Positions 2,278 to 48,953 of a DNA stretch of 64,000 nucleotides are shown piece after piece. Under the pieces are notes generated by a model. The model searched no databases. It saw nothing but the letters and a program-made list of their open reading frames with translations, and was not told the origin of the DNA. How positions within the stretch are numbered: position 1 is the first letter of the stretch; each line of letters opens with the position of its first letter. Origin of the DNA: Enoplolaimus lenunculus (lineage: Eukaryota); assembly GCA_030248215.1 (NCBI GenBank), contig JASANG010002792.1, forward strand, positions 434,001 through 498,000, in the 5' to 3' direction. Both the position numbers and the translations under genes were made by a program.

Positions 2278-5200
2278 GTATACGCCATAATTTCTGTTAT
2301 TATCGTGGTTGCAAGTGTTGCGTTAACAATTATTGAAACGATTCCATCGTTACGCATTGAGCAATGCCAACATGTGCCAGAGTTGACAAAATATTACAAT
2401 AATACAACCGATCATCATTCTGTAATTGCTTGGCATTCAAAATTCGCGTATAGTCCGCAACATCGTACGTAACTCTTGTTTTCAATTGCTAAACCTTTTG
2501 CAACGTAAAGTATACTATGAGAGGCAGGGTGTAACCTGATATCTGTTTAGTAAATATTGGTATTCGTTTTTGTTAGAGAAATACCGGAAATTCTGTTATT
2601 TTTTACACTCAAAATTGATGATAAATTACGAGTATATCTCGCAATTTTGCATTATGCTGCAATTGTTTGACATGACATATAAATTAAGAAATTCATCCAA
2701 ACGCTTAAAAACGTCGGTGCATCCACCATTTTTTCTTCGAAAATTTAGAAAGCCCGGTGATTATTTACACGTCCTAATTGAGTTGGCAGAAAAGTCAAAC
2801 ATCTTTGAAACTTTTATACATCAATATCCGTTTTCCGTTTAAATTTCGATATTTTGATCACTACTCGTTTTCATTCCGACCTGCATTTGTATACATGTCA
2901 CAAAATGCAAACTTGTCCACGTCATGTCGGAGGCTTTTCACTAAGACTACAGGGTGTTGTCTTCATTCAAGATACGCACAGTATGAGATTGCTAAACCTT
3001 TTCAGGAAATTGTTAAAAAGTTCCATGTGTTGGTGTTTGAAAACTTAATTTTAGTCGCAGTTGAAAGCATTTTCGCAGTAACAAAGTTATACGGTTCACA
3101 TATGATCGTAGCGTTTTATCTGTATTTCATGGTATCACGACAATTTGTCGCCCGACAACTAAGTCCAAAATTTTATCATCGACTCGACCATTCGTCACCC
3201 ATCATTATGCTTAGGTTTAGGCTTGGGATTAGCTTCACATACTGCTTAGATTTATTCCTAGGCTTTAGGACACTGTTGCACTTGAGGTTGTCGGGCGGTA
3301 ACTTATTGTAGATACGTATACCACACCGGCTTCTAATGGACTAAATTTTAGTTACTCTCTTTTGTCCTTGTACGACTTCCGCTACGCAAGCTTAATTTAG
3401 GAACAGTCTTAGGCTTAGGCTTTGAATTGGGTTCCTGAAACGGCTTTAATAAGATTAAGCATGAACCTAAACCTTTGTCTAAATTTTTACCTAAGTCTAA
3501 GCCTAAGCTCAAACTTAAGTCGCCGCCTTACCCTTCAATATTTCACAAAATCCATATTTTTAATAATCAAGTGGGCCAATGTACAGAATAGGACCGTAAA
3601 AGTAGTATAAGCGTATTACTAAGCCTAATCGTAAACCTACGCCTAAACCTAACCGAGACATTAGTCTAAAGCTTAGGCTTACTCTAGTATTGCAGTCCCG
3701 CAAAAAACATTCCTCCCGTACATGGGCTATTGATTGGTGCTTGCATGATTATAACCGTCTGTATGGCTAACAATATGAGCCGTGATGACACATGGAAATG
3801 TTACAGGCGCTGCAGTTCAAGAGCATCTCGAATATTGCCATCAAGCGCGTCTCATACAAGCGTTCCAGTTGTTTGCGGTAATGTTTCTTGTTTGGTTCAG
3901 CATAGACTATATGCTACGAATCTTCACTGCGCCACGAATACTGATGTTCATGATATCTCCTCTCGGTGAGTTAAAATAACGTTTCATAATAAAAGTAATA
4001 GTTTTCAGAATATTGGATATTTTGAAAATTATGAAAACTGCGAGTTCTTAGATGTTTAACCGAATTATAGAACAAAAATGTGATAAGCTTACTAGTCTAT
4101 CTACTTAAGCGTATAGGTTCACTCTTATTCGGTTTTAAGCTGTCACCATTATACTGAAAATACGAAATTTGAGGCTTTACAAAATCGATAATTGGAATCG
4201 AGCGTAAATGCAACATCCACAATAAAATGTTACGTATTTGGCCTCGGAAATCCCTTTAGCGTCATCCCGATGGTTTCCGAATCTGCCGTTGATTGTGTTT
4301 TGCGCTTTACCTTTGCAAAAAGTTTAATATGTCGATGATGTTTTCAGGCATTGTTGATCTAATGTCAATATTGCCACTATACATCGAGCTATTTATGAAT
4401 CCAATGGCGATAACCGATATTATGTACCCACGACGTTCGACTAAATACAATTTCCCGTTTCGAATCATACGATTTTTTCGACTTCTCAGAATTGTAATGG
4501 TATTTAAATTGGCTCGGTTTTCTTCTGGGCTCCGATTGATGGCTCTGGTGTTGCGTTACAGTATGTCAGCGTTGTCTCTTATACTGTTGTACGGTGCGAT
4601 TTATGTTATTATATTTGCAACTGTGTTGTATTTTGTCGAAGGCGAAGACGTCGATTCTAAGTTTAACAGTATTCCTGCAGCGTGTTGGTGGGCTGTTGGT
4701 AGGTTGTTTTGTCGCTCGATTATTTTTTATTCAATTTAAATTTCACATATTTTATAGCATAGTATTTATTCTGTGATGTGATATGGATGTGTCTTTCAGA
4801 CACATATAAGGTTCAAGGGTGTAGGCAAGATTTCATTTCGAAAAAGTATAGCCGGAATTTTGAGTAAAAAATTTTTTGCCGTTCAGGATCAACCAGGTTA
4901 TAATAAACAGTGCAAACGTGTGCTAATTTTTCGTCTCTCAAATTTTTCGGGATAAAGCTGCGATATTTTTCCGCTCTCTCCTTGTATACGTCTCTGGAAA
5001 CGTTGACTTAATTATGTTCTGATATTTTTTGATCTAATATTACATTTTCAGACATGGTAGTAGCTGCCAAGTTTGACCATAACTTTAGAAATGCGTTTGT
5101 GTCTGAATTTAGATTCAGAGATTTAGACACGACCCTGTCAGAATGATTTACAAAAAAATTAACGCGACATATGTGGGCTATTAAATGACCTTCGTTATAA

Positions 5201-7169
5201 TTTGTTACGGCCATTGTAAAGAACAGGGGTGGAACAGCATTATAAGCATATTCCTAAGCCTAAGCCTAAGCCTAAGCCAAGCAAAAACAATAGTCTAAAG
5301 CTCTTAAGCTTATCTATTCTAGTCCCACAGAAAAACGTTCCGCCCCTGATCTTTACATATTCCTTTGTTACTGTTGAGTGTAATATTTTAGTAACTTTCA
5401 TCTTGTTGTATTTAGTTGCTTTTTTTCAGTAACTCTAACAACACTTGGATACGGTGATATGGTTCCGCATACGCCGTGGGGCAAATTAGTTGGCGCAGCG
5501 GCGACCGTAATATCGATCTTGATCCTTGCGTTTCCAGTATCAATCATCGTTGACAATATGAAAAAAGCCTACAGCGAACTGAATGCCGAACAAAAACGAA
5601 CTAAACGTATCAAGCTGCGTAAGCCGTCATATTTGCGAAATAAGGCATGGTCCAGAAGTTTTTCGTCGTTTTCAAGCGGTAAGAGAAGCAGGGTCGCAAG
5701 TATTTATAGAATGGAACTTTTCGTAGTTGGCCTGTTATCTTTTTCCTGTATGACAAGTCTTCATTCCCGAGCTGAATGTTATTGATAGCGTTCATAGAAG
5801 TTTGGAGCAGGCAAAATTTCCTGGTCTCCTTCGAGACCTCATATTTTATTTTCTGTTGTCAATTTCAGGTTGCTGGCTGAGCAAGTTGTTATCACCAATC
5901 CTTGCGTCGGCCGTATACTAAAGTGATTATTAAGAACTCCGGTGTTTCGTTTTTGCAATACTTTGCACTTGAAAAGATTTTGCAACTACTTTATTGCAGT
6001 TTAATATGTTTAACCAAATTCATTTATAGTGATATTCTGATTTCGCTGTAAATCCGTGCGTTTCGAGCTTCATAAAGTAATGATCTTGAATCAACGAAAA
6101 TGGTTGACATAAGTTAAACGCGAGAGGTCCAAGTAATTGAAGCCTGGATTGATAAATAATCAACAGTCCGGTATCGAATCGCAAATTAATAGACGCTCTG
6201 GAAAGACGAAATAAATATCAGTCGCCACACCTCCTAAAGTCGAGTGAGTCACTACAGTATATAAAATTCATTGTGATCGTACAAACATTTGAAGACTAAA
6301 TTGTCGCGCATCAAATTTGTAGTTTTTGTTGAAGCTTTGTGCAAAACGCGATTTTAATTAATAATTTTATAGGTCAGCAAAGCATGCCACGACGATCTAT
6401 TCCAATCGCAATTACACCTCGAACTTTATCGACTTTGGAAACTGAAATTAATAACGTCGGAATAAGGCTTCCAGACGAGGATAGCACTAACTCAGTAGTA
6501 GAGTCACCAATAGTAGACAACTCTGTCTCGTACCTAGCATCACCAGATGAACTTGACACTCCGGAGCCAGTGACTGACCACCTGGAAGGCCGCCATATTC
6601 AGCGATTCCACGATTTCTCTTCGTCATCAGCGCCAGATATGCAAAGTTTTGCCAGTTTTCCCACGCCGGTATCCGGTTTCAATCAAATTGTTCCCATTAC
6701 AACAGACGTCGATTCGCACCGAACTCAACAGGATGGATGCCAAGATGCGGGCGGTCGCAAATTTACATGGTCACCAAGTTATGTTGCAAAACGTGCGTCC
6801 TTGAAGCTTGCAGGCACACTTGATAAACACAGTGGCCTCAAACGACGTAATACGTCAACATTTCAGTTGAAATCAAGTCATAAAGTGAGCCCTGGATCCG
6901 ATTATCAAACAGACACCAATCAAATTCTACCAACCGTAACCTGGTTGCAACATTATTTTAATAAGACAAATGCAGAAAATTTGAAACCAAATTCTGAAAA
7001 TTTAAAAACAAATTCTGAAAATTTAAACACAAATTCTGAAAACTTAAACACAACAAATAAACAGTCTTCACCTTCTGCGCGAATTCGCAGCGTTGCGCGA
7101 GATGGATGCCTTGAAACTGTACCCGAGGAGTCAAATACGTCCCGGCAAATCGATAATACTGATTTTTAA
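2278..7169 (+). CDS. Voltage-gated potassium channel alpha subunit, divergent; S1 to C-terminus (T1/N-terminus not found in window)
   Basis: Phase-consistent GT-AG exons: 2278-2464 (S1, VYAIISVIIVVASVALTIIETIP), 3807-3965 (S2), 4348-4698 (S3-S5; S4 RIIRFFRLLRIVMVFKLARF; SIPAACWWAV), 5430-5678 (TLTTLGYGDMVP pore and S6), 6373-7169 (disordered tail). Confidence 0.88.
6972..7055 (+). repeat. 21-bp coding tandem repeat (NSENLxT units) in Kv tail
   Basis: aattctgaaaatttaaaaaca-like unit about 4 times, translating as AENLKPNSENLKTNSENLNTNSENLNT. Confidence 0.8.
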
Positions 7170-9807: not shown

Positions 9808-11879
9808 TACTCCCTCTGTAAGTGCATGAAGCAAATTATCAATTTTCGAGGCGTGCAGCATTGGGTCCCACAGACTTTTATATGCGGGGTGCAAATGCTG
9901 GCCCTGTACTATTAATTCATAGCTTACAAGTAGTTGCCTGTATACAACGCAACGGATAGCTACGGCACTTTCTTAAACCTCTGGTAATTTCTCAAAGGCG
10001 GACGCAGGGTGAAAATCGTTGCGTCTCCTCTCGCCTCAGCAGTCCTACGGTGCCGAAAATTAAACGATACAAATGGTTTTCTAAAATCAAAAAAATTCCA
10101 GTTCCATCTTTGCTACTATATACACTTCTTTAATCTTAAAATGATTGCTATATCTGTGATTTTGCTGCGTTTCTTTGATGCAACATTTTATTACAGATAT
10201 ATACTGCCTTTAGTTCCCACCTAATTGCTAATTAATTTTATTTTCCACATATATCAACAAAATTACCAACAATCAATCCCACAAGTTTGTATGGGGTACG
10301 TTAACATATACACCCACCCGAAACCTGGACACGTCCAAAATTAACATGAGACGAAACCTTTTATACCTGAATACCTGTTGTCCGTTTCCGTTATTTTGCT
10401 CACCATCCGTTTTATGCGGAGTCGCTTGAGAAAATATAGGGCAGCCTACTTTTATGGAACAATTCTTTACACTCATAGAGTATACTATGAGCAACTAAAT
10501 ACGAATAGTATACCAGCTATACAGATACTCGAAATAGTATTTAACCATTCTAACATATACGCGCAGTGCAAAATTTCCACAAGAAGTTAGATCCCCTCGG
10601 GCTCAAGCGCCAAACTCCAATACTCAGTGGTAATCGTAAACGCCTCCAACCCGTGAAACTGGTGATCGAATCTTACCTTGAAAATACATCTCATATGCAA
10701 TTGAAATTCTCTAAATTAATCTCATATGAAACTGAAACTATTGATTGAGAAAGGGTTAAAGAACAACAGGTGCGAGTTAACTTCGATGCTACTATATTTA
10801 TTTTTGCAGCATCCAGAACGTCTTATTGTTTTTGCGTATCATTAGGTATTTTTGCACACTAAACGCTCAATGAAACGAAAAAAGACAAATTTCAAAGTAA
10901 ACCCAATCATTGGCTGATACAAGGGGGCAGCCACCCAGAGACACCTTGCAGCGGTTAATACCAAAACTTTGCGCTAAGATATAAACCAAAAAATTTTGTT
11001 TTGCTCTTCGTTAGATCCGCCACTAAACCTGGTTTATTCGAAACTGCTGTAAATCAGGCAACCGTAAAAACTGGTTGTTTATCGCCGATCGATATCAATG
11101 CATTATGTTTCAAAATACATAAACATGAAAATAGTGTCAGCCAATAATAATCGCCCACTCGGTCTGTTAAAACAGTTGAAACTTTACAAGCACTATTGTT
11201 TGGAGTTTGCAATATGTTTTTCAATCAGATCAAAATATTTTGTTCCTATAAAATATACACGAAACCTTTAATGTCACATTTTGGACGCTAAAACAACTAC
11301 TTACGGTAATTTTTGCTTGTGAGACCGAAAGTTGAGATGTAAAATTCAGTTAATAGAATGCAGCAAAATCGTACTTGTTTTCACAGCAATTTTGGATCTC
11401 ACTTTAATTTTTTTTAATTCTAATGCAAAATTTTGAATATATAATTTTTTAAGGAGCATAGTATTCGTTCAAGGTTTACACGCGTTGGGGTTGTAAGGTT
11501 AACGCAAAAAAGATTTTAAGTAGAGCTAATATATACTTAGATCATTTTAAAAATATTCACGCGTTAAAAACGCAATCTGATGAATCTGATGATATTTTTT
11601 GTGGCTGAAACAAATTCGTTATTTTGAACGATGAAGAAAATCACAGACTTAGCATTCGAATACCAGACGCTTTAATGGGCGGTATAACATTAGTCTAAAG
11701 CTTAAACTAGCTCTATTATAGCCCCTTCGGAAAACGATCCGGCCCTGTTCTATACATGGGTCAAAACTTTATTAACAGTGAAGTGCGACGAGCGCTCACG
11801 CTTTAGTGTACAATTTGTACTGTTCGTGCATATAATAATTAGGCTTCACGTTTAGGCTTTAGGCTTAGGTTTAGACTTA

Positions 11880-12095
11880 CACTGCAAAAAATGGTGAGTC
11901 AAATTGACTCTCCCCGAAATAGGCTTTTCCGGAATATACAAATCGAGTCAAATTTGACTCTGCTAGAATCACATTTGACTCACTGAGCGACTCATTAAGT
12001 CGAATTTGACTCTGGCGGAGTCGAATTTTAAGTTTGTTTAGTCCGGAAAAGCCTATTTTGCACAGAGTCAATTTGACTCATCATTTTTTGCAGTG
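11880..12095. mobile_element. MITE family A (CACTGCAAAAAATGGTGAGTCAAATTGACTC TIR, TA TSD; Tc1/mariner-type inferred)
   Basis: Near-palindromic element with TA on both sides, inserted in a TTAGGC-like tract. Further copies at ~17731-17939, 47782-47964 and ~48754-48953. Confidence 0.85.
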
Positions 12096-12591
12096 TAGGT
12101 TTAGGCTCAGTCTTAGGCTTAGGCTTACCTTTAGGCTTTAGGCTATCAGTACTTAAATATGTACTTCTCCTGCGTTGTTTATTGTATTTATACAAAAGAT
12201 TTAATAGTTTGAATCAAGCCAGACAACGCATGTACAATTTCCGAGATGCTCGCATCGAGTAATTTTTAAACATATGAACTGGCTTAGAAGTGCGTCATAT
12301 ACGTTTGCGATATCAAATATGTTACGTCACACGAGTTGGCTGAATTGCGTGAAAAGCTTGTGCGTGGAAGTTATTTTTTTAAAATTCAACTGCCAATAGT
12401 CACAATATTAAAATATTGAATGCGTTTATAAATCAGAACTGGATTACATCTGTCGTAAGTGCTACAAACCCAACGTAGTTGTTGAGTATTTTGATACTGA
12501 ATGTTTTCGTCGCATTCACAAAATTCATGCGCTAGTATTATGACATTTGTACAAACAAAACAGTTTCTAGATATTTTATTGCCGGATGTTT

Positions 12592-17100: not shown

Positions 17101-19120
17101 CAAATATATTGAACGAACAACCATCGAAACACAATCTTGCTGATGCGAGGTCGCGAATAAGTTTTCCTTTACTCTGTTTATTTTATTAGCAGGTCTGGAT
17201 TTTGCAGGATACGGATGCGATCATCAAGGACTTGTAATGCACGAACTAATGCACGTAATGGGATTTTATCACGAGCACGCGCGTAAAGATCGGGATGAGC
17301 ATGTTGAAATTTTCTGGGACAACATTTACGAACCGTTTCATAAAAATTTTCACGTGTACACAGTGCAGTATTTGGACAATCTGAACGTTGGCTATGATCT
17401 TGGATCGCTTATGCACTATGAACCGACATCATTTTCTATGTAAGCAGGTCAGAAGTATCAATAAATTTAATAGCGAGTTCAAAAAATTTTTTACCATTAA
17501 TGGTGACAAGATATTTAATGTTGTTCATACAGCTGTACAGCAAACAAAGCGTTTAATTTGTGAACTCATCCAACGTAATATCAATATTTAAGCTGATCCG
17601 AGTATTTTTTGACAGCAAGGTATATAATGAAAACTAGTGTGTCAAAGGCTGTCATTTGAGTCAATCTTAATGAAAACACTTATGAACCAAAAACGAAATA
17701 TTAAAGGTGGCGCTGTGCAGCGTCTCACGACCTGCAAAAAAATGGTGAGTCAAATTGACTATTCCGAAATAGGGTCTGTACGACTACACAAACTGAGTCA
17801 AATTCGATTCCGCCGGAGTCAAATTCGACTTACTGAGTAGCACGTCTGACTATGACGGAGTCAAATTTGACTCAGTTTGTGTTGTCCCGTAGAGCGTATT
17901 TCGGAGAGATTCAATTTGACTCACCGTTTTTTTGCAGTGTGGAAAAAGTAACTTTTAACAAACATGTGATGCGGCGTTGCGCAAAAAAGTATTGCACAAC
18001 CCTAACTCGTGTTTGATTTATACTTCAGCATAGTTTTAAACTTATCCCTCCGGGCCGCTATCCAGAGGTGGGCCAAAAGGCTCAGCGTCCCTCTGAAAAT
18101 ATTTTGGCCCTTCCAAGACAATGTTCAACATTGCTTGCATCGCAAATCTTTGTATGCGCCTTCTGAAAAATTTATCGCCCCTTAGCAAAGCGATCTGGCC
18201 ACGGGCCTGCATGCCCAACGCTAAGGCGTAGAGTGAACACTAGGCTTGCGGTAACGTCGTGTCTCTGAAAATAGCATTCGTAATTTCAGCGATGGTTCAC
18301 CTACGATTCGTGCTCTTAACGGTGTAGAAGAGTTCGGGCAACGCGAAGGAGTCAGTGATAAAGATATCGAAAAAATTAATCGACTTTACGATTGTAGAGG
18401 TAAAACTGCAATATTTTAGCGAAGGCTAAAGTTTTAACGGTGTTCTATTAAAACCTGTACAGCTTACGAATAGAGTACCTTTCTGTAAAACGAGGATATG
18501 GAGTTCGTTAATTAATACAAGCACAAAATACTACAATCAGAAATGGAAACGGGTTGTGATGTTTAACACTAGCGAATAACTGGTCATAGGTATGTATATG
18601 CATCCAGGAGTAGATCATCGTCATATCGTGCAGAGAAAACACGAAATTGATTTTATTTAAAGAAGCGAAGTTTGTATTTTAATATTTATGCCTGGCCAAA
18701 ACTTCAGATTACATCGACTACGCAAAATTCACCGAACCAGCCAACTTATCAACAATCTCATCAAATTCTGACGACGAAAATACATCTGTTGCGGTGCTAC
18801 ATAACACAACATCGCCCGAAACGAGCCAAAGTACAAGTTTACCGCAATCAGAACAGCCTAAAAGCTGCGCTGACGTCACCGGAAACAGTGTTCAGTGTAA
18901 ACAAATTGTCGCAGCTAATCGATGCATGTCGCCAATCGCTAAATCGACTTGCAGTCTCTCGTGCGATTCGTGCAACCCTAATGCGATTACAAGAGCGTCG
19001 CATTCAATTGAAGAAATTGCACTTGCAAAACGATGCCAATTTCATGTTATGCGTGGCGGTTGCAAATCGTTTTTGCTACGAATGCATTGTCATGCTCAAT
19101 GCTTAGCTGCAGCTGCATAA
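14195..19120 (+). CDS. Astacin (M12A, nematode NAS-type) zinc metalloprotease with C-terminal ShKT domain; first exon and signal peptide not resolved
   Basis: Exons: 14195-14528 (prodomain, FEGDI), 15325-15455 (WPGDRIPY..TCIRF), 16135-16237 (GCSSRVGR), 17208-17439 (HELMHVMGFYHEHARKDRD; Met-turn SLMHY), 18290-18399 (GQREGVS..INRLYDC), 18708-19120 (ShKT CADVTGNSVQC..CSLSCDSC). Confidence 0.92.
14709..15104. mobile_element. MITE family B in astacin intron
   Basis: ta|ctgtagtgaaccgaataagagggg ... cccctcttattcgggtcactacag|ta. Confidence 0.85.
16357..16592. mobile_element. MITE family C carrying TTAGGC repeats (GGCC termini, 8-bp TSD; Merlin-like inferred)
   Basis: TIRs ggcccatgttactttgaggggcgt / acgccccttaaagtaacattggcc. 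Flanks are gatatgct and gatattct. The interior contains (ttaggc)n. Confidence 0.75.
17731..17939. mobile_element. MITE family A copy
   Basis: ctgcaaaaaaatggtgagtcaaattgact ... aatttgactcaccgttttttttgcagtg. Confidence 0.8.
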
Positions 19121-21870: not shown

Positions 21871-22221
21871 CAGGGTGCAACTGAAGGTGAAAAATACTGG
21901 AAACGGAGCCGGAGCCGGAGGTCAATGAAACTTGCCGGAGCCGGAGGCCAGGCGAAATTAGGTAGTAAAAATCTTATGGTTAAGTAGATTTATTTTAGCC
22001 AATATCTGCAATATATTGCAAAGTTGTCTGGTTTTGCGTTAATTTTCTGCGAAATTTCGGAAATTCCTTCCTGAAAATTGTGACAAAAGTAAAACGAAAC
22101 GCGTTAAACAGATAAATTTTGCAATGCACTGAAAATCCGACAACAAATCTACTGGAGCCGGAGCCGAAGTCCGATTTTGTGCAGGAGCCAGAGCCGGCAC
22201 CAGACCTGCGGTTGTACCCTG
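21871..22221. mobile_element. hAT-like MITE with GGAGCC subterminal repeats
   Basis: TIRs cagggtgcaac / gttgtaccctg. The 8-bp flanks are ttattttg and gtattttg. ggagcc repeats occur near both ends. Confidence 0.7.
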
Positions 22222-22560
22222 GTATTTTGGGATATTGGGATTTCGGGATATCGGGATGTGGTCGGTCGGACATGGGATTTTGGGATTTTGGGAATTCGAG
22301 ATATGGTCGAACATGCTATAGTATTTTGGGATTTCGGAATAGGGCTCGAAGGTGGGATTTTGGATTTCGGAATGTGGTCGGAGGTGGAATTTTGGGATTT
22401 TAGAATCTCTGTATATGGACGATAGTGGGATTTTGGGATATGGACGAAGATTAAATATGAGGATTTTACGATATGGTCGAAGGTGGGATTTTGGAATTTC
22501 GGGATATGGTCGCAAGTGGGATACTGGTATTTTGAGATTTTGGGATATTTTCGAAGGAGG

Positions 22561-22909
22561 TGTAGAATATTTGTGGCGATGCGATAATATATGAATTGAA
22601 TGCAATTGGTCGATATAATAATTTGCAATACGCAAACGAAAGACACACAACTCGGCTATTTGGCTCAATCAAATTACAAATTCATTGGTTTAATTAATAT
22701 GAACTTATGGACGAATGTGTAACTGCTTATACAGTGAGGTTTCTGACCTCTGAAAAATAATAATCTTTCTTCCTTCAACGCTATGTATATATATATATAT
22801 ATGATAATTATATAACTAAATGTAAATTTTCAAGCATAAATTTCCTAGCTACAGGAAAAATTCAGAAGAGCGTTTATGCAAATCAACCAGAATTTCGATA
22901 GATTTGACA
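22561..22909 (-). repeat. 3' LTR
   Basis: tgtagaatat...gatttgaca. Matches 29789-30137 except C22712 versus T29940, by eye. Confidence 0.95.
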
Positions 22910-22925
22910 CTCCCGACCGAAGAAT

Positions 22926-24101
22926 CTAACGGACGAACATCCCCAAGTGATTTCGTCGAAAAGAAAAGTTCTCCCTGGCCATCGTAAACGCCACTGATTT
23001 CAGATCGTCGTAAAGTTGGGCGCACTCCTTGAGCACAGTTCGAAACCCCATATGATTGAGATGAAAACAATCGTTGTCGAACAGATTAACGTTGACTGAT
23101 TCCGGAGTCGAGCCACGAAACGGACAGTCGGTGCGAGTCGACCAATTGATGCAGTGGATTGCCAATTTTTTGCAGCGTCGTTGAACGAATTTGGAATGTT
23201 TGGAAATACCCGGAACTGAAGGATGAGGAACGGCAGTGCAAACGACAGTTGCAGGCAAACGGCCGTCAGGTTGAAGACGCAAAAACGACTCAAGCACATC
23301 CCAAGAAGCTCTTTGTCCTGCGACACTTCGTTGAGCACTATTAACACCACAGTTGATGATAAGTATGGCATAATCTTGGATGTTGATGTTGAATTGATGT
23401 GCAGCATCAACCAAATCATGGTATTGCCCACCGGAAATGGCAATAACCAAGCCACGATTGATGTACTGAACGTGCCGTCCCTGGCTGTCCGAAAGCAAGA
23501 GTACTGTTCGACGATAGTGAGGCGGTGGCAATAAATTGTGTGTTAAATAGGCAACACCCGATCCAATGTAGGGAGTCCAATCGGACTCAAAATGGCGTGC
23601 GATGACGACGTCGAGACAATGGCCGTAGTTATTGAACCCGGGATACGAGTGATTGCCGCGGTCGACACCGTATTGTGGGCGAAACCCCGATGTCCATACC
23701 ATTTCGTGAGTAGCCGAGCAAAGGACAAAATGAAGCGAGTTGACATTAGGCATTGAACGCGCGACAGAGTTGAAGGCATCCTTGAAGGCATTGGGTGGAT
23801 GATTAGGATTGACCAATTCCAACATGATGTCAATAACTAACTGTCGGGAATGGAATACCCATTCAGCACTGATACGGACAGCATTATTCCGAATCCACGT
23901 CTCGATCTCTGCCGGATGACGAGCTAGAAACGAATTGTGGCGTAGACGATGAGCAAGATCATCATTTCCCATCTGCTTGAGGATTATATAACATCGAATC
24001 ATTTCGATGGATGTGAACGACCGATCGACAAATCTGAGAGGGGGGTCGAAACTGTAGTACAGCGATAAGGGATGTACGTGGGTGATGTTGAAAACCTGCA
24101 T
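22926..24101 (-). CDS. Retrotransposon ORF2: unknown N-terminal domain plus SGNH/GDSL hydrolase-like domain (391 aa)
   Basis: SGNH blocks in the correct order and spacing: I VLLLSDSQG, II AISGG, III IINCGVNS, V DNDCFHLNHMG. The ORF lies between pol and the 3' LTR on the pol strand. Confidence 0.8.
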   Translation of the reverse strand: MQVFNITHVHPLSLYYSFDPPLRFVDRSFTSIEMIRCYIILKQMGNDDLAHRLRHNSFLARHPAEIETWIRNNAVRISAEWVFHSRQLVIDIMLELVNPNHPPNAFKDAFNSVARSMPNVNSLHFVLCSATHEMVWTSGFRPQYGVDRGNHSYPGFNNYGHCLDVVIARHFESDWTPYIGSGVAYLTHNLLPPPHYRRTVLLLSDSQGRHVQYINRGLVIAISGGQYHDLVDAAHQFNINIQDYAILIINCGVNSAQRSVAGQRASWDVLESFLRLQPDGRLPATVVCTAVPHPSVPGISKHSKFVQRRCKKLAIHCINWSTRTDCPFRGSTPESVNVNLFDNDCFHLNHMGFRTVLKECAQLYDDLKSVAFTMARENFSFRRNHLGMFVR

Positions 24102-24244
24102 ACTGGTTTCTCTGAAAACACAACATACCTGATATTAATTTGTTTTTATTTAATAATTAATTATTTTTGCAAATTAAAAAAAAACTAATAATTAATATTA
24201 ATGGCGCAAAAAAGCTTATTTTTGTTAATTCCAATTATAATCCG

Positions 24245-27200
24245 TTACAGTTCAACAGATTCAGCATCGCTGACATCATTGTAGCTAACTTGGTCGTTGA
24301 CAGTGCCCGGCGTCGAGGGAGATGGAACGCCCTGGTTGGCTCGACCCTTCCCGTCAACGAAGGTAGAAGATTCGAGAGGGAAAAGCAGACGTAACGGGCG
24401 ATTTATTAATTTTTTGTTGTGTAGCTGAAGAATGACTGAGCGGCAACGACCATCGGATCCGTGCTTCAAATCTATGATTTTTGCTAACTTCCAACTGTTA
24501 CGGGGTAAATTGTCTTTCACTATTACGATGGTTCCCACTGCCGGTGTCAAGGGGCTGCCATTGCGATGTTGGGTAGGTTTAGACTGGGATCGCACACCCA
24601 GAAGATATTGATTTTTCCAAATCGTCCAAAAATTGTCCAGCATGCCTTGAATCCTCTTCCACTCAAGGATCAGCTGATCAGGAGTCGAGATTGTAGGGCA
24701 ATTACCCTTCACGATCCGAAATCTTGGAACCTGAGGTTTTGGACCCCCGAGAAAGTGTGATGGAGTCAGTGGTGGAATTGACATGTCCGATTCGGAGTAT
24801 AGCAAAGGGCGGGAGTTGACAATCGCTGAAACTTCGAGGATAATTGTTTGTAGCTCCATCAATGACACGCATCGAGCATCGAACACTTTTTTCAGTGCAG
24901 ACTTAACAATTCCCACCATCCTTTCATAGAACCCGCCCATCCAAGGCGAAAGTTCTGTGATAAATTTCCATTCGATTCCACGGGTTGCTACGAAGTCGAC
25001 TACGGTTGAATCAAGTAATACAGTGCGCCACAACTTGGAAAACATAGCATTGGCGGCTATGAATTGCTTAGCGTTGTCCGAAACAATAAGGCGTGGTTTG
25101 CCAAATCGTGCGAAAAATCGTCGTAGACACAAGATGAATTGATGAGCATTCATTTGCTCGACGATTTCCAAGTGCACTGCTCGAATCACAGTACACGAGA
25201 ACAAACATACCCAAACTTTGGTGAGTGTCTTGTCTGGTGATTTAATCAACAAAGGGCCGAGATAATCAATCCCAACACAAGAAAAGGGTTGGCAGCGGTT
25301 CACTCGAAATTCCGGCAACGGCGGAAGGTTTTGCTCTTGGAAGCAACCGCCATGAGCAATACGACAGATCATACACGCCTTGATCACACGCTTTACCTGT
25401 GCACGACCGGATGGGATCCAATACTGATATCGAAGTTGGGACAACGTATGAGCTGTCCCTGCATGACACAGACGACGATGAATGTCATCAATGACGAGGT
25501 CTGTGAAGTGATTGGACTTCGGCAACAATTTTGGATATTTGGCGTCATCATCAAGATCAGCATATTGCAGTCGACTACCACAACGGATAAACCCTTCCTG
25601 ATCCACAAACAGTTGGAGGGCCTTAAATGAATGGGGAAATTTGCCTTTTCTTCCTTTGGAAAACATGTTGGGGAAGCCTGTTTGTTGCACGCGACGCTCC
25701 CAGAATGCTTGGGATTCAGATAATTCGGCAGCGGTTAAAGGGCCAGACACCGATTTCTTCTGACAATTGTTAATGAATCGCCGAATCCATGCAGTAACCC
25801 GTATCAAATGGGTCAACCGAGAGAATCGATCAATCACAATGATGTCATCTGGCGCAGGTCCTTCAGCATTGTGTTGGATACTGCCGGTAGAAGGGTCATT
25901 CGAGTCATTAAGCAACGATACGGAACCGTCTATGTTCTCTGGCCACGAGTCACGAATGAGCCAATCAGGACCGTTCCACCAGAGATGATTGCTCATTAGT
26001 GAATTCAATGTGCAACCACGAGACGACAAATCAGCTGGATTACACTCGGTTGGAACGTAACGGAAGGTAATATCGCTGTGTGAGTTGATTTCGCGAATTC
26101 GATTCTGCACAAACACAGTGGAAATTGACTCCTTTCGTTGCCAATGCAATACGCATTGAGAATCCGACCACACGATTTTGCTATCAATAGTAAGTTTCAA
26201 TTGTCGAGCAACAAATTGTATCAGGCGGGTGCCGATCAACAAGGCCATCAGCTCCAGTCGTGGAATTGACAAGCGTTTGACAGGAGCGACTCGTGATTTG
26301 GCAAAAACTAGACGTGCGGTGACACCATTAGCAGTCTGTGTACGAAGATAGATGGCGGCAGCGAACGCCTTTGCAGACGCGTCACAAAACGCGTGTAGCT
26401 GGTATGTTCCGTCGGCTGGAGTCGATGGACCGATATAGCGAGTAATTTTGTGCTCGGCGATGCCTTGGAGACTTGATGCGCAGCGTTTCCACTGCTCGAT
26501 AATAGCTGCCGGAAGCTCGTCGTCCCAGCCATATTTTTCGAGCCAAAGGGTTTGGATCAATATTTTCCCAACAACAGTGACGGGTGAGAAATATCCACAT
26601 GGGTCGAACACGCTGGCCAGGCATTTCAGCATCAACCTCTTCGTCGCCACCGAGGATAAATCGGCATTGAACGAAGAACAAGACAGCGTGTCAAATTTGG
26701 TATTCCACACTAACCCGAGTACCTTCGTGATATCAGATTTCCCACGATCTTCCGGAGCAATGGATTCCTGCAATGTCTGACTGTTAGAGAACCATTCTCG
26801 AAGATTCATTGCAGCATCATTAAATATTTGTTTGGCAGACGTGTAAAACTTGATGGCGGCTTCATCCGACGATGCACCGGTAATTACATTGTCCACGTAA
26901 ACGTTTTTACGGATTCGATCAGCAACGGGGTCACTAGACTGTTGCAGGTGATGCTGGATCACTGCCGCCAGGAGAAAGGGACTAGCAACAGCTCCGAAGC
27001 AAACACGGGTGAAGCGATAGGTGATGATGTTGTTGCCGTAAGGTGGGCGGTTTCGATCTTCGACCCACAAAAATCTAGCGACATCTCGTGAGGGCACATC
27101 AAGTCCAACTTGCAGAAATGCCTTCTCGATGTCACTTACCAATCCGACTGGCGACAAACGAAAACGGATGATGAGACCACATAAATCGTCCAGAATTACT

Positions 27201-29593
27201 GGACAACGGTACATGCAGTCGTTAAGACTGGGACTGTCCTTACTGGCTTTGGCGGACGCATCATAGACTATGCGCACTTTGGTGGTAGCTTTAGATGGTG
27301 TAACAACGGCATGATGTGGTATATAATGTGTTGGGTGGCCAGGTTCATCATCTGTAACACGCTCGATGATTCCCTTTGCTTCCTGATCCACGATGATTTG
27401 TTGGTAGGCGTCGAACAGCTGGGAATCAGGAACAACCCGTTTCAGTGTGGAAATAAGACGTTTTTTTGCGAGATATTGATTCGTTGGAAGGGGCGGAGCA
27501 TCTGCCTTCATTGGCCAAGAAACTTGATATCGACCGTCAATGCGTTGAATCGATTTATTAAACAAGCGCACAGCTTCTTCATCTTCATTGGATGACGCGG
27601 GAGGCTTTACACCGATGTCCTCCAAATTCCAAAACTGCTCGATGGCAACGTTGGTGTCCGGAGTAGCGGACAAGTGCATCGCTGTGACGTCGTGTGGGTT
27701 GGACTTTTCAGAAGTAACGATCTTCCCCGAAGCGATAAATCCGAGAGTCGACGATACGAAAAGTAGTCCATCGGAACACTGCACGCGAGCCGTGCCGACA
27801 AAATCGTAATAATAGTCGAGCCCAATTAAAATGTCAACAGGCACCATTTCCGTTTGCTGAGCAATTGGTTCCGCAAGAACGAGTTGTTTGATCATTGGAT
27901 ACCTTGTAGAGTCGATTGCAATCTTCTGGATTGGACAAGAAATTTCGTCGATGACGTTGGCGGTGATGGTCTTAGTTGATCCATTGCTGAGGATAACGTG
28001 AAATCGGGCAATTTCATACTTCTTAGTTTTTCGCTTTGTGTCCGCAAAACCGGCGGTCGATATGTATTCAGTGCCCAACATGCGGGCCCCGATTTGCTTC
28101 ACTAAACGAGTGGTGATAAAAGTCCGAGAACAGCCGGTGTCGAACAAAAGTCTAGCTGTAGATCTGCGTAAACCTTCTATTGGGGCAACAGCAGTTTGCA
28201 GGACGACCTTTTCACCGTGTGACAACAATGACATATTTGCTGGCGTCACAATTCGTGACGGATCAGACCCGTGTGTTATTAAAGCCGAATCCGGCTTAAC
28301 AGCCATTTCATCAGATTTGAATTTGGACAGACACATGCTGCGATGATGTGTTGATTTTTTGCAATACACGCATGGGCGAGAGTGTGGACAAGCTTTCACC
28401 AAGTGTCCTGTTTTGAGGCAGACAAAGCATGCATTGCCAATACGTTTACGCCGAGAGGGAACATCGGGGTAGGTGGCACACTGGTCGCTGAAATGTGCTT
28501 CATCGCAATAGGCGCATCGTGGGCCTTTAGGCTTTCCGTTGGTGTTGTTTGTTAGAAGTGATGCAGAACCACCCGACAAAGATTTCGGACGAGACGAGGT
28601 ATTTTGCTGGCCAGCACGCTGCTGAGAGGTGCTCCCTGAATGACGGTCCGATGGGGCCTTCGGTCCAAACGTCCGTTGACTGAAGTCCCGAGCTCGAATT
28701 TCACTCTTCAGCGATTCTCTGAGATTGCCAAGAGTCCAGGGCTTCGAACCATTTTGACGATATAATTCCATTTTGACAAATGTTGGCAGCTTAGATAAGA
28801 TTATGGGTGTAAATACCTGTCCAAAGGTATCTTCTGGCAGTCCCAAGGCTTTGAGGCTACGAATATGGCGCTCACATTCGTCGTATGTAGTCTGCAGTTT
28901 TTGGGCGTCATGCGTCACGACGGGAAGGGCTAGCATGGATTCAAAATGTGTAAATATCGCTACCTGTTTATTACCAAACCGTTCCTTAAGAATCTCAACC
29001 ACCGAATCATAATTCTCAGTGGTAAGCCTAAACCCATCAACCACTCGCAACGCTTCCCCGGCCAAATACCCTTTTAAATACTTAAATTTATCGATAGTAG
29101 AAAGGTCTAAATTTGTATCGATTGTTGAACTGAAAGTGTCCCAAAACTCATCCCACTTTAGGGGGTCCCCCCTAAATGGTGTTATTTCGAGCTTGGGTAA
29201 CTTTACCGAAGCGTTATGAGAGTGCCCGAAAGATGTATTGTTAGCCGACCCACTAGGTGACCCCGTAACCGGTAGTGTAGAAACGGAATGAAAAAGTTTT
29301 ATCTTAGTTTTTAGTTTAGACAAAGTGTTCAAAACAGATTCATCAATTTCACTCGACTTCTGAATTTCAGAAGAAATATCGTTATCAGTGGTTAGGCTTG
29401 CCAAAATTTCATCATTAAGTGTTTCCAAGCGTGCCCGATAGTCGATTAGTTTTTCAATACATACTTCGGCTTCTTCAATAGTGTTTGAGGTTACTACATT
29501 CCCTATTTGATTAGAATTTTGAATTTCTTTAGTAACATTAGCACGCACTGCACCACGCTGTTTTATACGTGTAGCTATCGTTTTTGAATCCAT
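24245..29593 (-). CDS. BEL/Pao Gag-Pol polyprotein (1782 aa)
   Basis: Gag LPKLEITPFRGDPLKWDEFWDTF; three Cys/His knuckles (CAYCDEAHFSDQC, CFVCLKTGHLVKAC, CVYCKKSTHHRSMC); protease LFDTG; RT SDIEKAFLQV and YVDN; RNase H FCDAS; integrase HHCC, IDYLGP, SDNA, GGFYERMV. Domain order is PR-RT-RH-IN. Confidence 0.97.
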   Translation of the reverse strand: MDSKTIATRIKQRGAVRANVTKEIQNSNQIGNVVTSNTIEEAEVCIEKLIDYRARLETLNDEILASLTTDNDISSEIQKSSEIDESVLNTLSKLKTKIKLFHSVSTLPVTGSPSGSANNTSFGHSHNASVKLPKLEITPFRGDPLKWDEFWDTFSSTIDTNLDLSTIDKFKYLKGYLAGEALRVVDGFRLTTENYDSVVEILKERFGNKQVAIFTHFESMLALPVVTHDAQKLQTTYDECERHIRSLKALGLPEDTFGQVFTPIILSKLPTFVKMELYRQNGSKPWTLGNLRESLKSEIRARDFSQRTFGPKAPSDRHSGSTSQQRAGQQNTSSRPKSLSGGSASLLTNNTNGKPKGPRCAYCDEAHFSDQCATYPDVPSRRKRIGNACFVCLKTGHLVKACPHSRPCVYCKKSTHHRSMCLSKFKSDEMAVKPDSALITHGSDPSRIVTPANMSLLSHGEKVVLQTAVAPIEGLRRSTARLLFDTGCSRTFITTRLVKQIGARMLGTEYISTAGFADTKRKTKKYEIARFHVILSNGSTKTITANVIDEISCPIQKIAIDSTRYPMIKQLVLAEPIAQQTEMVPVDILIGLDYYYDFVGTARVQCSDGLLFVSSTLGFIASGKIVTSEKSNPHDVTAMHLSATPDTNVAIEQFWNLEDIGVKPPASSNEDEEAVRLFNKSIQRIDGRYQVSWPMKADAPPLPTNQYLAKKRLISTLKRVVPDSQLFDAYQQIIVDQEAKGIIERVTDDEPGHPTHYIPHHAVVTPSKATTKVRIVYDASAKASKDSPSLNDCMYRCPVILDDLCGLIIRFRLSPVGLVSDIEKAFLQVGLDVPSRDVARFLWVEDRNRPPYGNNIITYRFTRVCFGAVASPFLLAAVIQHHLQQSSDPVADRIRKNVYVDNVITGASSDEAAIKFYTSAKQIFNDAAMNLREWFSNSQTLQESIAPEDRGKSDITKVLGLVWNTKFDTLSCSSFNADLSSVATKRLMLKCLASVFDPCGYFSPVTVVGKILIQTLWLEKYGWDDELPAAIIEQWKRCASSLQGIAEHKITRYIGPSTPADGTYQLHAFCDASAKAFAAAIYLRTQTANGVTARLVFAKSRVAPVKRLSIPRLELMALLIGTRLIQFVARQLKLTIDSKIVWSDSQCVLHWQRKESISTVFVQNRIREINSHSDITFRYVPTECNPADLSSRGCTLNSLMSNHLWWNGPDWLIRDSWPENIDGSVSLLNDSNDPSTGSIQHNAEGPAPDDIIVIDRFSRLTHLIRVTAWIRRFINNCQKKSVSGPLTAAELSESQAFWERRVQQTGFPNMFSKGRKGKFPHSFKALQLFVDQEGFIRCGSRLQYADLDDDAKYPKLLPKSNHFTDLVIDDIHRRLCHAGTAHTLSQLRYQYWIPSGRAQVKRVIKACMICRIAHGGCFQEQNLPPLPEFRVNRCQPFSCVGIDYLGPLLIKSPDKTLTKVWVCLFSCTVIRAVHLEIVEQMNAHQFILCLRRFFARFGKPRLIVSDNAKQFIAANAMFSKLWRTVLLDSTVVDFVATRGIEWKFITELSPWMGGFYERMVGIVKSALKKVFDARCVSLMELQTIILEVSAIVNSRPLLYSESDMSIPPLTPSHFLGGPKPQVPRFRIVKGNCPTISTPDQLILEWKRIQGMLDNFWTIWKNQYLLGVRSQSKPTQHRNGSPLTPAVGTIVIVKDNLPRNSWKLAKIIDLKHGSDGRCRSVILQLHNKKLINRPLRLLFPLESSTFVDGKGRANQGVPSPSTPGTVNDQVSYNDVSDAESVEL

Positions 29594-29778
29594 TTAAAGC
29601 GAGTATTCTAATAGTACATAGCGCAAAATAATTATACTATACACTGACCGATTGTCCGTTGATTCTCAAATCTGAGAATGTGGCGATCCACAAACAGCTT
29701 GATGCAACACGGAGAGTTTGAAATCTCAAACAAACAGAAGCGAGGTAGAGCAATTCTTAGCAACTGGTTCGATAGTGG

Positions 29779-29788
29779 CGAAGGACCA
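29779..29788 (-). promoter_or_regulatory. Primer-binding site (TGGTCCTTCG, tRNA-Tyr-like)
   Basis: Directly abuts the 5' LTR and is complementary to a tRNA 3' end CGAAGGA-CCA, as in animal tRNA-Tyr (recalled, not searched). Confidence 0.7.
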
Positions 29789-30137
29789 TGTAGAATATTT
29801 GTGGCGATGCGATAATATATGAATTGAATGCAATTGGTCGATATAATAATTTGCAATACGCAAACGAAAGACACACAACTCGGCTATTTGGCTCAATCAA
29901 ATTACAAATTCATTGGTTTAATTAATATGAACTTATGGATGAATGTGTAACTGCTTATACAGTGAGGTTTCTGACCTCTGAAAAATAATAATCTTTCTTC
30001 CTTCAACGCTATGTATATATATATATATATGATAATTATATAACTAAATGTAAATTTTCAAGCATAAATTTCCTAGCTACAGGAAAAATTCAGAAGAGCG
30101 TTTATGCAAATCAACCAGAATTTCGATAGATTTGACA
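29789..30137 (-). repeat. 5' LTR
   Basis: Direct repeat of 22561-22909, followed on the + strand by the TSD GGAGG. Confidence 0.95.
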
Positions 30138-30151
30138 GGAGGAATGATCTT

Positions 30152-36473: not shown

Positions 36474-36767
36474 CCCTTCATAGTTGTGATTTCAACAACC
36501 AAGGCTACATGGTACTGTAATAAGTATGGCGTAAACATTGCTAAAATAACTGCTTATGTTAATTGTAGGAATATAGAGGAGACTAGACGGATTAGATCGT
36601 GCGAGCATCGAAAGCAGGCTCCCTTCATAGTTGTGATTTCAACAACCAAGGCTACATGGTACTGTAATAAGTATGGCGTAAACATTGCTAAAATAACTGC
36701 TTATGTTAATTGTAGGAACATAGAGGAGACTAGACGGATTAGATCGTGCGAGCATCGAAAGCAGGCT
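36474..36767. repeat. 147-bp direct tandem duplication
   Basis: 36474-36620 and 36621-36767 are identical apart from one visible substitution (aggaatata versus aggaacata). Confidence 0.9.
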
Positions 36768-37788
36768 AAAGCAGAAAATCGACCTCCGGCTCCGGTACAT
36801 TTTCTCCTGCGCGTTCGGGCACATTCGGTAGTGCAATTTTGTATAGTTTTACAAAATTTATTTAGTGCGTTTCGTTTACTGTTAGTACAATTTGAAGAAG
36901 AAATGAACGATATTTCGTAAAAAACCGTTAAACCCAACCCGAAAAAAAATTTGCCGGGCGCCGGCGCGCGCGCTCTAAAACATTTTTAAAAATTACTTTA
37001 CGCCGGCGACCGGCTCAGTATTATACTATAGCCCAACCCTGTATCAGCGCCTTACAGATATTTTGCTAAGTTTCCGGTAAAAATCGGTGTTCGTTTCGTT
37101 ATCAAAACAATGTAAATTCTGTTGTTTTTACGTTTAGAATTAGTTATGAATCGGGTATTTATATCGCAATTTTTCGTTACAAATATGCTACAGTCATTTT
37201 ATATTATGCATTTGCCGTTTTTCTTTCTTTAAAGTTTTAGAAAGCTTAGTGAATATCGCACGTCTCAATTGTATTGGCAGAAACATGAGAAATAAAAATT
37301 TCTTTATAACTTCGGTATCCGCTTTCTGTTTCCGTTATTTTGAACGCAAAAAGTAGAGTTGGCAGAGTAATGTAAAGTACGTTGTACAGGAACAGTTTAT
37401 AATGTTAGGAGCGTTTGCAGGTAGTTCCAAGTTTAACGTTTTAAGAAGTAAACTGATTTCTGCAGCTGTGGCTGGCAAAATGACTTTCGGAATAAATTTG
37501 TTGCAGAGCTTTTGTATAAACGGCTGATATGACATTTCTTATCGGTTAAGAAAAAATTTGATGCTTTCTTAAATACAGAAAACCGTGTATTCAAAACTTT
37601 GTCTTCCTTGGACGTGTGATAGCAACTGATGTGCACGTCTTAGACGGATCTTGTTCAGTCGTAATCAAAAACTAGTATATAGCCTCTGTAATGAATTCTG
37701 TCGAGTAAATTTTCTTTCGCAAATTTTCATTTTAGCATTGATCAAAACTGAGATCTTTAAATTATTGGCTTATGCTCATCAGGTGTGT

Positions 37789-39966
37789 ATGGAGATTTGG
37801 TGGATCACAATAGCGTATTTCGTAGCTCTTATCAAAACACTTGCTGTATCAATAGAATTGACATTTGAGCTGCCGGATAATGCCAATCAATGCTATTACG
37901 AGGACATTACTGAGAAAACAGATTCTACTGTTGAGTTTCAGGTAGTTCTTCCGTTCGCTAATGTCGTAATGTGCATTAGTTTTTGCTTAATGGGTACAAT
38001 TCGACTTGCTGAAACATCACTTGTCATGTTTTGTGATTGTTTAGTACATGACTTCCAGTGGAAACTGTGACAAAAATAATTATTTCAGGCAAGATGTTTC
38101 TGATTGGTTTAGTATTCCCATACGTGTAAACATTTGTTTTTCGTTACTTGTTTAAGTACATATTTCAAGTTTATTGTAGTCTGTTGGTTCTGTTGTAATA
38201 GCATCTGTAGTAGGCTAAACGCGGACTATTTCTAAGAATATTTGATAATTTTAGGTGGTGACGGGTGGTCAATATGATGTCGACATGTATATAGAAGCTC
38301 CGAATGGTAGAATTCTATATAAAGACATCAAGAAGCAATACGATAGCTTTACTTTTAAAGCCGAGGTGACAGGAGCGTACAAGGTTTGTTTTTAGACTGT
38401 ACCTTGAATTTGAACGTTAATTGAGAGTAAACTCGAGAAATTTGGTATTTATTTTGAATTAATTATGACTTAAAAATGTACTTAAGTTGATAAATGCAAT
38501 GGGTAGGTTCCTTTTTGTTATTTAAAGTTACAAAGTGCGGAAGCGCTGGCATATTGCGTGTATATTTGTGCTATTTTTTAAACCAATAATCCTTCATTGG
38601 CTAAAGTTACGTGCAGCATTATTATCGATGATTCGAACCCTAACTTTTACAGCAATCGTTAGAACCTTTGAAGAGAATTTAGACGTTGTATTCACATTTA
38701 TCGTAACTAAAATCGCGCGACTATGTGCATGCATTCACGTTTGTTTGCTTTGGCCCAATCTAGCGAAGCGAAAATGTTTCTAGGTTTGTTTTTCAAATGA
38801 ATTTTCAACATTCTCGCATAAAATCGTGTATCTTGATTGGCAAATCGGAAACGAACAGCCTATGTTGCCGCAGATGAGCCAACATCTTACAGCTATGACA
38901 GCAGTAAGTTAATAATTAATTTTGAATATTATAGTGCAATGTTATGCTTACTTTTTCACTTGAAATGTTATTCAGTTACGTTTATCAGAATTCTGACCAG
39001 TTACCGGTTTTAGTATGCGAAAACATCAATTTTCAAGATCGCATAGACTTTGTAAGTGTAAGCCTTATGTATTAATGAACTACGTACATTTTTCTATATT
39101 AGGCTGCGCTCAAAATTTAATATATTTCTAGTTCAGGTCGGCACCAGATAAAATGGAAATTTTGTAACGTTGATTCTAGCATACCTATATTTAACCTTAC
39201 ACCAGTCCGCTACGGTTTAATTTATGCTTTATAACGCCAGATTAGAATTTAACATACAGGTTCTTTGCATAAAGACTGTTCGAGTTGTGCTAAATAGAAA
39301 ATGTGTGAAATTAAATCCGCGTATCTAATCCGAAAATTATGAGTACAAATACAATACATGACTTTGTTTTCGATGATTTTCAATTCTTAGCAGTAATGTT
39401 GCAAGTTTTTGTATAGAATACGTCACAATTGGCTGATTAACCAAACGGAATAACTGAAATTTTTCTAAAATTATATACTGCAGTTAGAAAGTTCCGCTCA
39501 AGAAATTCACGAAAAACTGAAAAAGATTGAAGATTATCAAACACATCATCGCCTTAGAGAAGCTACCGGGCGCAAAAGAGCGGAAGACTTAAATGAACGT
39601 GTCCTCTGGTGGTCTGCAAGCTATACAGGGGTCATATTACTGATTGGAATTACACAGGTTCGTTTTGCTTATATATTCTGCTTTCTTTTTCTATCGAAGG
39701 ATATTCTAAAAGAAGTATTACCAGAAACAGTGCCTATAGCACTCAAGTTCACTTAATTTGAGATTGATTTGATTTTTAATACGACGAAAGGAACGGCACC
39801 CTCGTTGAAGAATGTAGTTTTGGTGCAAAATAAGTTAAGTTCTTTAAAGCTTATTGTAAACATCTAATAATGTTATGTTTTCTTTATGTGTTATTGTATT
39901 TTTCAGGTCATTGTTTTGCGATCCTTTTTCACCGAGAAGAGGCCCGCTGGAAGCACGTTTCTGTAG
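37789..39966 (+). CDS. TMED7: p24/emp24 GOLD-domain cargo receptor, gamma subfamily (TMED3/TMED7-like)
   Basis: Exons: 37789-37941 (signal peptide, [16 protein letters not shown]), 38255-38383 ([10 protein letters not shown]), 38784-38903 ([17 protein letters not shown]), 39484-39657 ([26 protein letters not shown]), 39907-39966 (LRSFFTEK). Confidence 0.92.
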
Positions 39967-48753: not shown

Positions 48754-48953
48754 ACTGCGAAAAATGGTGAGATGACTCTCTCCGAAATAGGGTCTACGGG
48801 ACGACACAAACTGAGTGAAATTCGATCACGCCAGAGTCCAATTTGACACACTGAGTCGCACGTTTGACTGTGGCGGTGAATTTGACTCAGTATGTGTAGT
48901 CTAGTTGAGCCTATTCCGGACAAAGTCACTTTGACTCACCATTTTTTGCAGCG
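48754..48953. mobile_element. MITE family A copy ~50 bp upstream of the phosphatase ATG
   Basis: actgcgaaaaatggtgag ... ttgactcaccattttttgcagcg. Confidence 0.75.

Follow-up and report, generated by a model that had tools for sequence, protein, structure and literature searches.

A BEL/Pao retrotransposon with a predicted NADAR-like and SGNH esterase fusion protein in the envelope position

The only third gene that the ICTV profile names for BEL/Pao retrotransposons is env, and the same holds for a survey of BEL/Pao elements, in whose main text, in its accessible portion, neither "esterase" nor "hydrolase" occurs. An element within the DNA analyzed here, a 64,000-nucleotide stretch from Enoplolaimus lenunculus (hereafter the window), carries in this position an open reading frame, ORF3, that a first-pass annotation had read as a hydrolase of the SGNH/GDSL esterase type captured by a BEL/Pao lineage. 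This locus raises the question of what kind of protein such a gene encodes, how firmly the gene is tied to BEL/Pao elements, and what the protein could do for them.

Results

The element is a young, intact BEL/Pao copy

The element lies on the minus strand and spans positions 30137 to 22561, both LTRs included. The 5′ LTR (29789–30137), with TG...CA ends, and the 3′ LTR (22561–22909) are each 349 bp long and agree at 348 of 349 positions, the remaining base being different. A 5-bp target-site duplication, CCTCC, is found at 30138–30142 on the 5′ side and at 22556–22560 on the 3′ side. Because the LTRs differ at one base and the CCTCC duplication is present, the element must have inserted recently. 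It is a young and intact BEL/Pao copy. Its 3′ end sits within a high-copy, short-unit repeat (22039–22560).

A likely primer-binding site, beginning with TGG, directly adjoins the 5′ LTR (29766–29788). It resembles a BEL-type tRNA-Arg site in which a short insertion, containing a 3-nt repeat, follows the tenth nucleotide. The ICTV profile gives tRNA-Arg or tRNA-Gly as the belpaovirus primer. Downstream, a single open reading frame (24245–29593, minus strand) encodes a Gag-Pol protein of 1782 amino acids comprising Gag, protease, RT, RNase H, integrase, and DUF5641, wherein Pfam matches to Peptidase_A17, DUF1759, DUF1758, and DUF5641 constitute the BEL/Pao domain set. The order Gag-PR-RT-RH-IN with Pao-type domains places the element in the Belpaoviridae, and the translation includes the RT motif YVDN, which is described as a belpaovirus motif (PMC9094657).

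The Gag-Pol stop (24245) is followed by a spacer of 143 nt with 20% GC (24102–24244) and then by ORF3 (22926–24101, minus strand), which is an intact frame of 391 amino acids. The 16 nt that separate the ORF3 stop from the 3′ LTR at 22909 (22910–22925) end in a short purine-rich run, the likely polypurine tract. These coordinates agree with the first-pass placement of an intact 391-residue frame inside the LTRs, 143 nt beyond Gag-Pol and 16 nt short of the 3′ LTR.

Elsewhere in the window, host exons occur among positions 4293–5785 (plus), 37630–38070 (plus), and 58898–59551 (minus); they encode a voltage-gated ion channel and a p24/GOLD protein (both by Pfam) and a piece of a two-pore potassium channel that was recognized by eye and has no Pfam match. 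A 649-codon open frame (51588–53537, minus) is rich in Gln/Thr/Ser repeats and likewise has no Pfam match. A dispersed repeat family (11878–12103, 17763–17946, 47780–47972, and 48781–48961) looks like a small non-autonomous transposon. The window also includes a 40-nt minisatellite (55068–55679) and a near-perfect 147-nt tandem duplication (36474–36767). The hexamer TTAGGC, which is the nematode telomere unit, occurs 71 times in the window versus 24.8 expected, an indirect sign that the host is likely a nematode.

ORF3 represents a protein family with two predicted domains

Single-sequence searches with ORF3 alone gave no match in Pfam, NCBIfam, PHROG, or the PDB sequences, and its score against a profile of 13 bacterial SGNH sequences was no better than that of shuffles. 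With no database match of its own, the window protein owes its SGNH assignment to its family. This family was reached through Pol: among the best 120 of 2350 Pol relatives, which were screened with ORF3, one BEL Pol (P0056; 46% identical to the window Pol) carries an ORF3 homologue at its end (29% identity, 86 bits) in which every esterase motif is present. A profile of the window ORF3 and P0056 retrieved 84 proteins (P0056 and 83 others) at E ≤ 0.001 among 1.84 billion. The best of these relatives are ~31% identical to the window ORF3, and many are 390 to 450 amino acids long with both halves matched. The 20 relatives that we looked up derive from assemblies of JGI, ENA, and Logan. Several relatives (P0152, P0153, P0162, P0163, P0173, P0176, P0180, and P0207) have long, low-complexity C-terminal tails rich in Arg and Ser that are absent from the window protein.

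An AlphaFold model of ORF3 built with 75 sequences consists of two domains (pLDDT 94.2, pTM 0.91). We are highly confident that ORF3 has a two-domain architecture in which a NADAR-like domain is joined to an SGNH domain, wherein both folds and their packing are predicted from the AlphaFold model, the Foldseek comparisons, and the profile match. Conservation of residues is counted below over 56 two-domain members, or over fewer where a column is uncovered.

An envelope fusion glycoprotein was considered for ORF3 and rejected, since a transmembrane anchor and a fusogen fold are absent and the model matches enzymes. The highest 19-residue hydropathy in the window protein is 0.96, which indicates that it has no transmembrane helix. 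The first-pass annotation had likewise seen neither such a helix nor a fusion envelope.

The C-terminal half is a predicted SGNH domain with its catalytic residues in place

The SGNH domain (residues ~197–365; 23007–23513, minus strand) carries the Ser, Gly, Asn, and His of blocks I, II, III, and V together with an Asp three residues before the His. These are S206 (encoded at 23486–23484), G224, N254, D344, and H347 (the last two within 23072–23061), and they lie in the blocks that had been picked out in the initial reading. A loose version of the SGNH motif set, composed after the protein had been seen, occurs in 4 of 20,000 shuffles of the ORF3 protein. Ser, Gly, Asn, and His are jointly kept in 47 of the 56 two-domain members, and Asp is present at position 344 in 38.

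The AlphaFold and Foldseek check that had been proposed for this fold supports the assignment. Against the PDB, 38 matches have E ≤ 0.001, all 32 rows listed from the top 50 ranks are of the SGNH/GDSL type, and the probability is 1.0 for many SGNH structures. Among the 83 relatives, 25 match Lipase_GDSL_2 at E ≤ 0.01, with 5 above cut-off. The best match of the family profile to PDB sequences is 4c1b, the esterase of the zebrafish LINE ZfL2-1 (E = 5.5e-8). This proximity to retroelement esterases makes transfer among mobile elements more likely than acquisition from the host. The SGNH domain of ORF3 is probably an active serine esterase.

A separate observation concerns a 926-nt contig in a Ruminococcus albus assembly (L006), whose esterase is 100% identical to E. 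coli TesA and which is likely contamination.

The N-terminal half resembles NADAR but lacks two canonical residues

The other half of ORF3 (residues ~1–175; 23577–24101, minus strand) resembles NADAR/YbiA domains. The Pfam family NADAR (PF08719) matches 3 of the 83 relatives, and weakly, such that the ORF3 family is nearly missed by Pfam. When an alignment of the N-terminal half (53 rows) was compared by hhalign with nine bacterial NADARs, the probability was 94.9% (E = 4.5e-8), whereas among the controls none of the 30 column shuffles exceeded 1.05%, the reversed alignment reached 0.4%, and a comparison with an SGNH alignment reached 0.2%. In BFVD, the ORF3 model matches the structure of a Marseillevirus NADAR (E = 1.4e-4, target TM 0.72, rmsd 3.3) as well as two phage NADARs (E < 0.001). 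No solved NADAR was present among the Foldseek PDB matches listed or in the PDB sequence searches. Regarding the captured hydrolase of the first-pass annotation, the SGNH domain is supported, but it is not a lone hydrolase, as it is fused to a NADAR-like half that had been overlooked.

The pocket of this domain is partially preserved. The ribose-binding Glu of the first helix in known NADARs (E43/E88) corresponds to Glu33 in the window, and this residue is kept in 21 of the 38 members that cover the column. The phosphate-binding Lys of known NADARs (K50/K95), located two turns past that Glu, is missing: the window has Ile40, and no Lys is conserved across the ORF3 family. The register at this site includes a gap of ~6 to 7 residues, and His44 may substitute. 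At the last-strand catalytic position, which is Glu, Asp, or His in known NADARs (E125/D171), the window has Leu127/Cys128, and Glu occurs in 5 of 56 members. The remaining pocket residues of the window, Glu133, Trp136, and a G-x-N motif, fall in columns with Asp or Glu at 133 in 52, Trp136 in 26, Gly155 in 54, and Asn157 in 41 of 56 members.

Of the three residues functionally tested in a characterized NADAR (PMC11543638), the window protein therefore keeps one, Glu33, and is without the other two. Given this loss, we call the domain NADAR-like rather than a member with the activity of the family, and the absence of the phosphate-binding Lys makes even ADP-ribose binding doubtful. Residue comparison suggests that the N-terminal half is likely a NADAR-derived domain whose canonical catalysis has been lost.

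The gene is old and very probably tied to one BEL clade

Two predicted proteins, P0056 and P0180, consist of a BEL Pol followed by an ORF3 homologue, which is the order seen in the window. Two further relatives share their source and exact contig size with a Pol (P0138 with P0019, 7567; P0152 with P0011, 8445), a circumstantial link found for 2 of the 20 looked up. BEL context is hence indicated for 4 of the 83 relatives, and the other 79 could sit in other elements. All four linked Pols fall within the clade of the window Pol (P0180 as placed by the integrase tree), which in the RT tree contains 12 of 121 sequences with a support of 0.90, although support inside the clade is uneven (0.25–0.96 in the RT tree and 0.04–1.0 in the integrase tree). 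The linked Pols are 39 to 46% identical and their ORF3s 23 to 31% identical. Such divergence within one Pol clade indicates that the arrangement is old, and the ORF3 gene is very probably tied to this one BEL clade.

The same organism also holds a diverged sibling of ORF3, found in contigs of all three sequencing runs (X1–X3) that match window positions 23325–23360 and 23842–23864. In the X3 sibling, both domains are matched and the distance between them preserves the frame (487 versus 481 nt). Across three loose ends of 30 nt each, the residue is unchanged at 15 of 30 codons, of which 9 differ silently, and the frame is free of stops; these codons were counted by hand in stretches adjoining matches, which biases the count upward. 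Other contigs of this organism match parts of Gag-Pol, indicating that sibling BEL families are present. In place of the single capture by one BEL/Pao lineage that had first been envisaged, the data indicate a diverse family of long standing with ties to a BEL clade.

Phlebovirus-type env (PF07245) is present in 4 of the best 120 Pol relatives, and the env-bearing relatives form a separate clade of six (support 0.64, RT tree). Five Pols (P0058, P0073, P0107, P0111, and P0112) are joined in frame to a phlebovirus-like envelope; two of the five are named Plectus sambesii, and their clade is apart from the one linked to ORF3.

ORF3 may be expressed from a spliced RNA

The spacer includes an AATAAA sequence (24150–24145) and a splice-acceptor-like site, TTTTCAG (24118–24112), located 10 nt ahead of the ORF3 ATG. 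An acceptor-compatible dipeptide is present in the five residues before the Met in 8 of 12 upstream-extended relatives versus 12 of 321 background windows, wherein the dipeptide set was chosen after examples had been seen and the relatives were judged from protein rather than DNA. The site before the ATG and the signature in relatives together suggest that ORF3 is likely expressed from spliced or trans-spliced RNA.

Loose ends of the X3 contigs map to window positions 22962–24103 and 24074, and in one case the adapter is attached 2 nt upstream of the ORF3 ATG, which hints at a start there, although contigs cannot establish one. We presume that these ends derive from a template-switch cDNA adapter, though our guess is that run X3 is DNA.

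Discussion

SGNH and NADAR domains are each already known from other retroelements, whereas their fusion and its BEL/Pao context are apparently new. In the full-text literature, which for this purpose included few subscription journals and no supplements and left Repbase and Dfam outside, there was no paper on a NADAR-SGNH fusion and none on an esterase or a NADAR in BEL/Pao elements; the one paper that came up for the two domains together is on lipase biocatalysts. The accessible part of a review of giant transposons also lacks NADAR.

The Vesta LTR elements of bdelloid rotifers resemble the window element in having a GDSL/SGNH gene as a separate ORF3 in the env position, with intact Ser, Gly, Asn, and His and no transmembrane segment (PMC5408684). 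In contrast with the window element, they are not placed in BEL/Pao, and no NADAR is named, in the available text of that paper. Moreover, Vesta esterases group with those of Athena and with host GDSL proteins, apart from LINE esterases (PMC5408684), whereas the best solved match of the window family is a LINE esterase. That esterase, from ZfL2-1 (4c1b), has its Gly, Asn, Asp, and His at +22, +52, +136, and +139 from the Ser (PMC3905857), compared with +18, +48, +138, and +141 in the window. In ZfL2-1 and in CR1, L2, RTEX, and Penelope elements, the esterase belongs to ORF1p, behind a coiled coil and in a non-LTR setting (PMC3905857), whereas the window esterase belongs to an LTR element and follows a NADAR-like domain. 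Ngaro elements (PMC9210276) and Helitrons, the latter with texim (PMC4021074), are other mobile elements with SGNH cargo, and the portions of these reports that were accessible name no NADAR.

Retroelement-borne NADARs of the YbiA family are reported from the Pol of Ectocarpus Gypsy elements and ORF1 of oyster Tx1 LINEs; these are highly conserved and lie within Pol or ORF1 (PMC12477816), whereas the window domain is degenerate, resides in a separate ORF3, and is fused to an esterase. With the NADAR/YbiA ADP-ribosyl hydrolases (PMC11543638, PMC11125620, and PMC12945103), it shares the fold and several pocket residues but not two of the three tested ones. The env of nematode belpaoviruses such as Atlas virus occupies the same BEL slot but is a transmembrane fusion glycoprotein (PMC9094657).

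The explanation that we favor, with a probability of roughly 55%, is that ORF3 is a conserved accessory gene for a soluble protein whose NADAR-like part would bind and whose SGNH part would cut an ester. The NADAR-like domain, likely non-catalytic, would bind a target that bears ADP-ribose or a nucleotide, and the SGNH serine esterase would then cleave an ester on this bound target. The protein would act inside the cell, on the RNA-protein particle of the element. A more specific version casts ORF3 as a counter-defense reader and eraser of ADP-ribose esters made by the host. Ester-linked ADP-ribose products of hosts include Asp/Glu-ADP-ribose on proteins and O-acyl-ADP-ribose. We propose an ADP-ribose ester as the substrate tentatively, favoring it for two reasons: it would account for the persistence of a NADAR partner, and the NADARs found in animal RNA viruses have been proposed to act against ADP-ribosylation by the host (PMC9503650). 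More doubtful is the full form of this idea, in which the place of an envelope is taken, in a BEL/Pao clade, by a reader-eraser fusion whose dead NADAR recognizes ADP-ribose and whose esterase acts on O-acyl-ADP-ribose or on ADP-ribose in ester linkage.

Since the phosphate-binding Lys is missing and the ZfL2-1 esterase binds lipids, another model is a close rival. In it, the SGNH domain would bind lipids or trim them and the worn NADAR domain would retain RNA or cDNA of the element, such that particles become attached to membranes and can be assembled, transported, or passed from cell to cell without an envelope. The closest solved sequence is indeed that esterase, whose lipid ligands are anionic and whose turnover is low (PMC3905857). 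Likewise, ORF3 occupies the slot of the phlebovirus-type env of related BEL elements, and the Arg/Ser-rich tails of several members could bind RNA. We nevertheless consider such a membrane adaptor unlikely. The window protein has no transmembrane segment, and 19-residue hydropathy exceeds 1.8 in just 3 of 53 members. The transposon-specific residues of ZfL2-1 are not conserved at the presumed columns (His 250 in 9 of 56; Ser 288/289 in 18 or 4 of 56), and the choice of an ADP-ribose-related fold as partner would be left unexplained.

Less probable again is that ORF3 comprises two working enzymes, with a NADAR domain that removes ADP-ribose from bases through a changed active site and an independent esterase. 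The kept Glu33 and Asp/Glu133, a family-specific His44 (25 of 42), and the five members with a last-strand Glu are compatible with this, and even among the nine reference NADARs, three lack that Glu and two lack the Lys. However, mutating either the Lys or the last-strand Glu cripples the characterized NADAR (PMC11543638), no ORF3 member combines Glu33 with a Lys at columns 39 to 41, and the last-strand Glu is replaced by Leu/Cys in the window. Finally, a host or foreign gene carried as a passenger with no role for the element is very improbable: although context is seen for few relatives only and rotifer ORF3s showed neutral variation within genomes (PMC5408684), ORF3 has been kept with intact catalytic residues beside Pols that have diverged as far as those described above, the sibling gene diverges at silent sites, and among the 20 members looked up there was no named host gene.

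The accessory-gene reading bears on a question asked since such enzymes were discovered in LINE ORF1 proteins, namely why retroelements repeatedly acquire SGNH esterases. A fusion partner related to ADP-ribose points to a class of substrates and makes this question testable; at hand are a confident model of a small soluble protein and more than 50 natural variants that have both domains, a NADAR catalytic residue being kept in five. ORF3 also extends the contents of the env slot in BEL/Pao elements beyond envelopes. If the protein does recognize and erase ADP-ribose esters, the chemistry by which it removes the ADP-ribose mark would be new, and it would provide direct evidence that animal hosts turn ADP-ribosylation against LTR retrotransposons.
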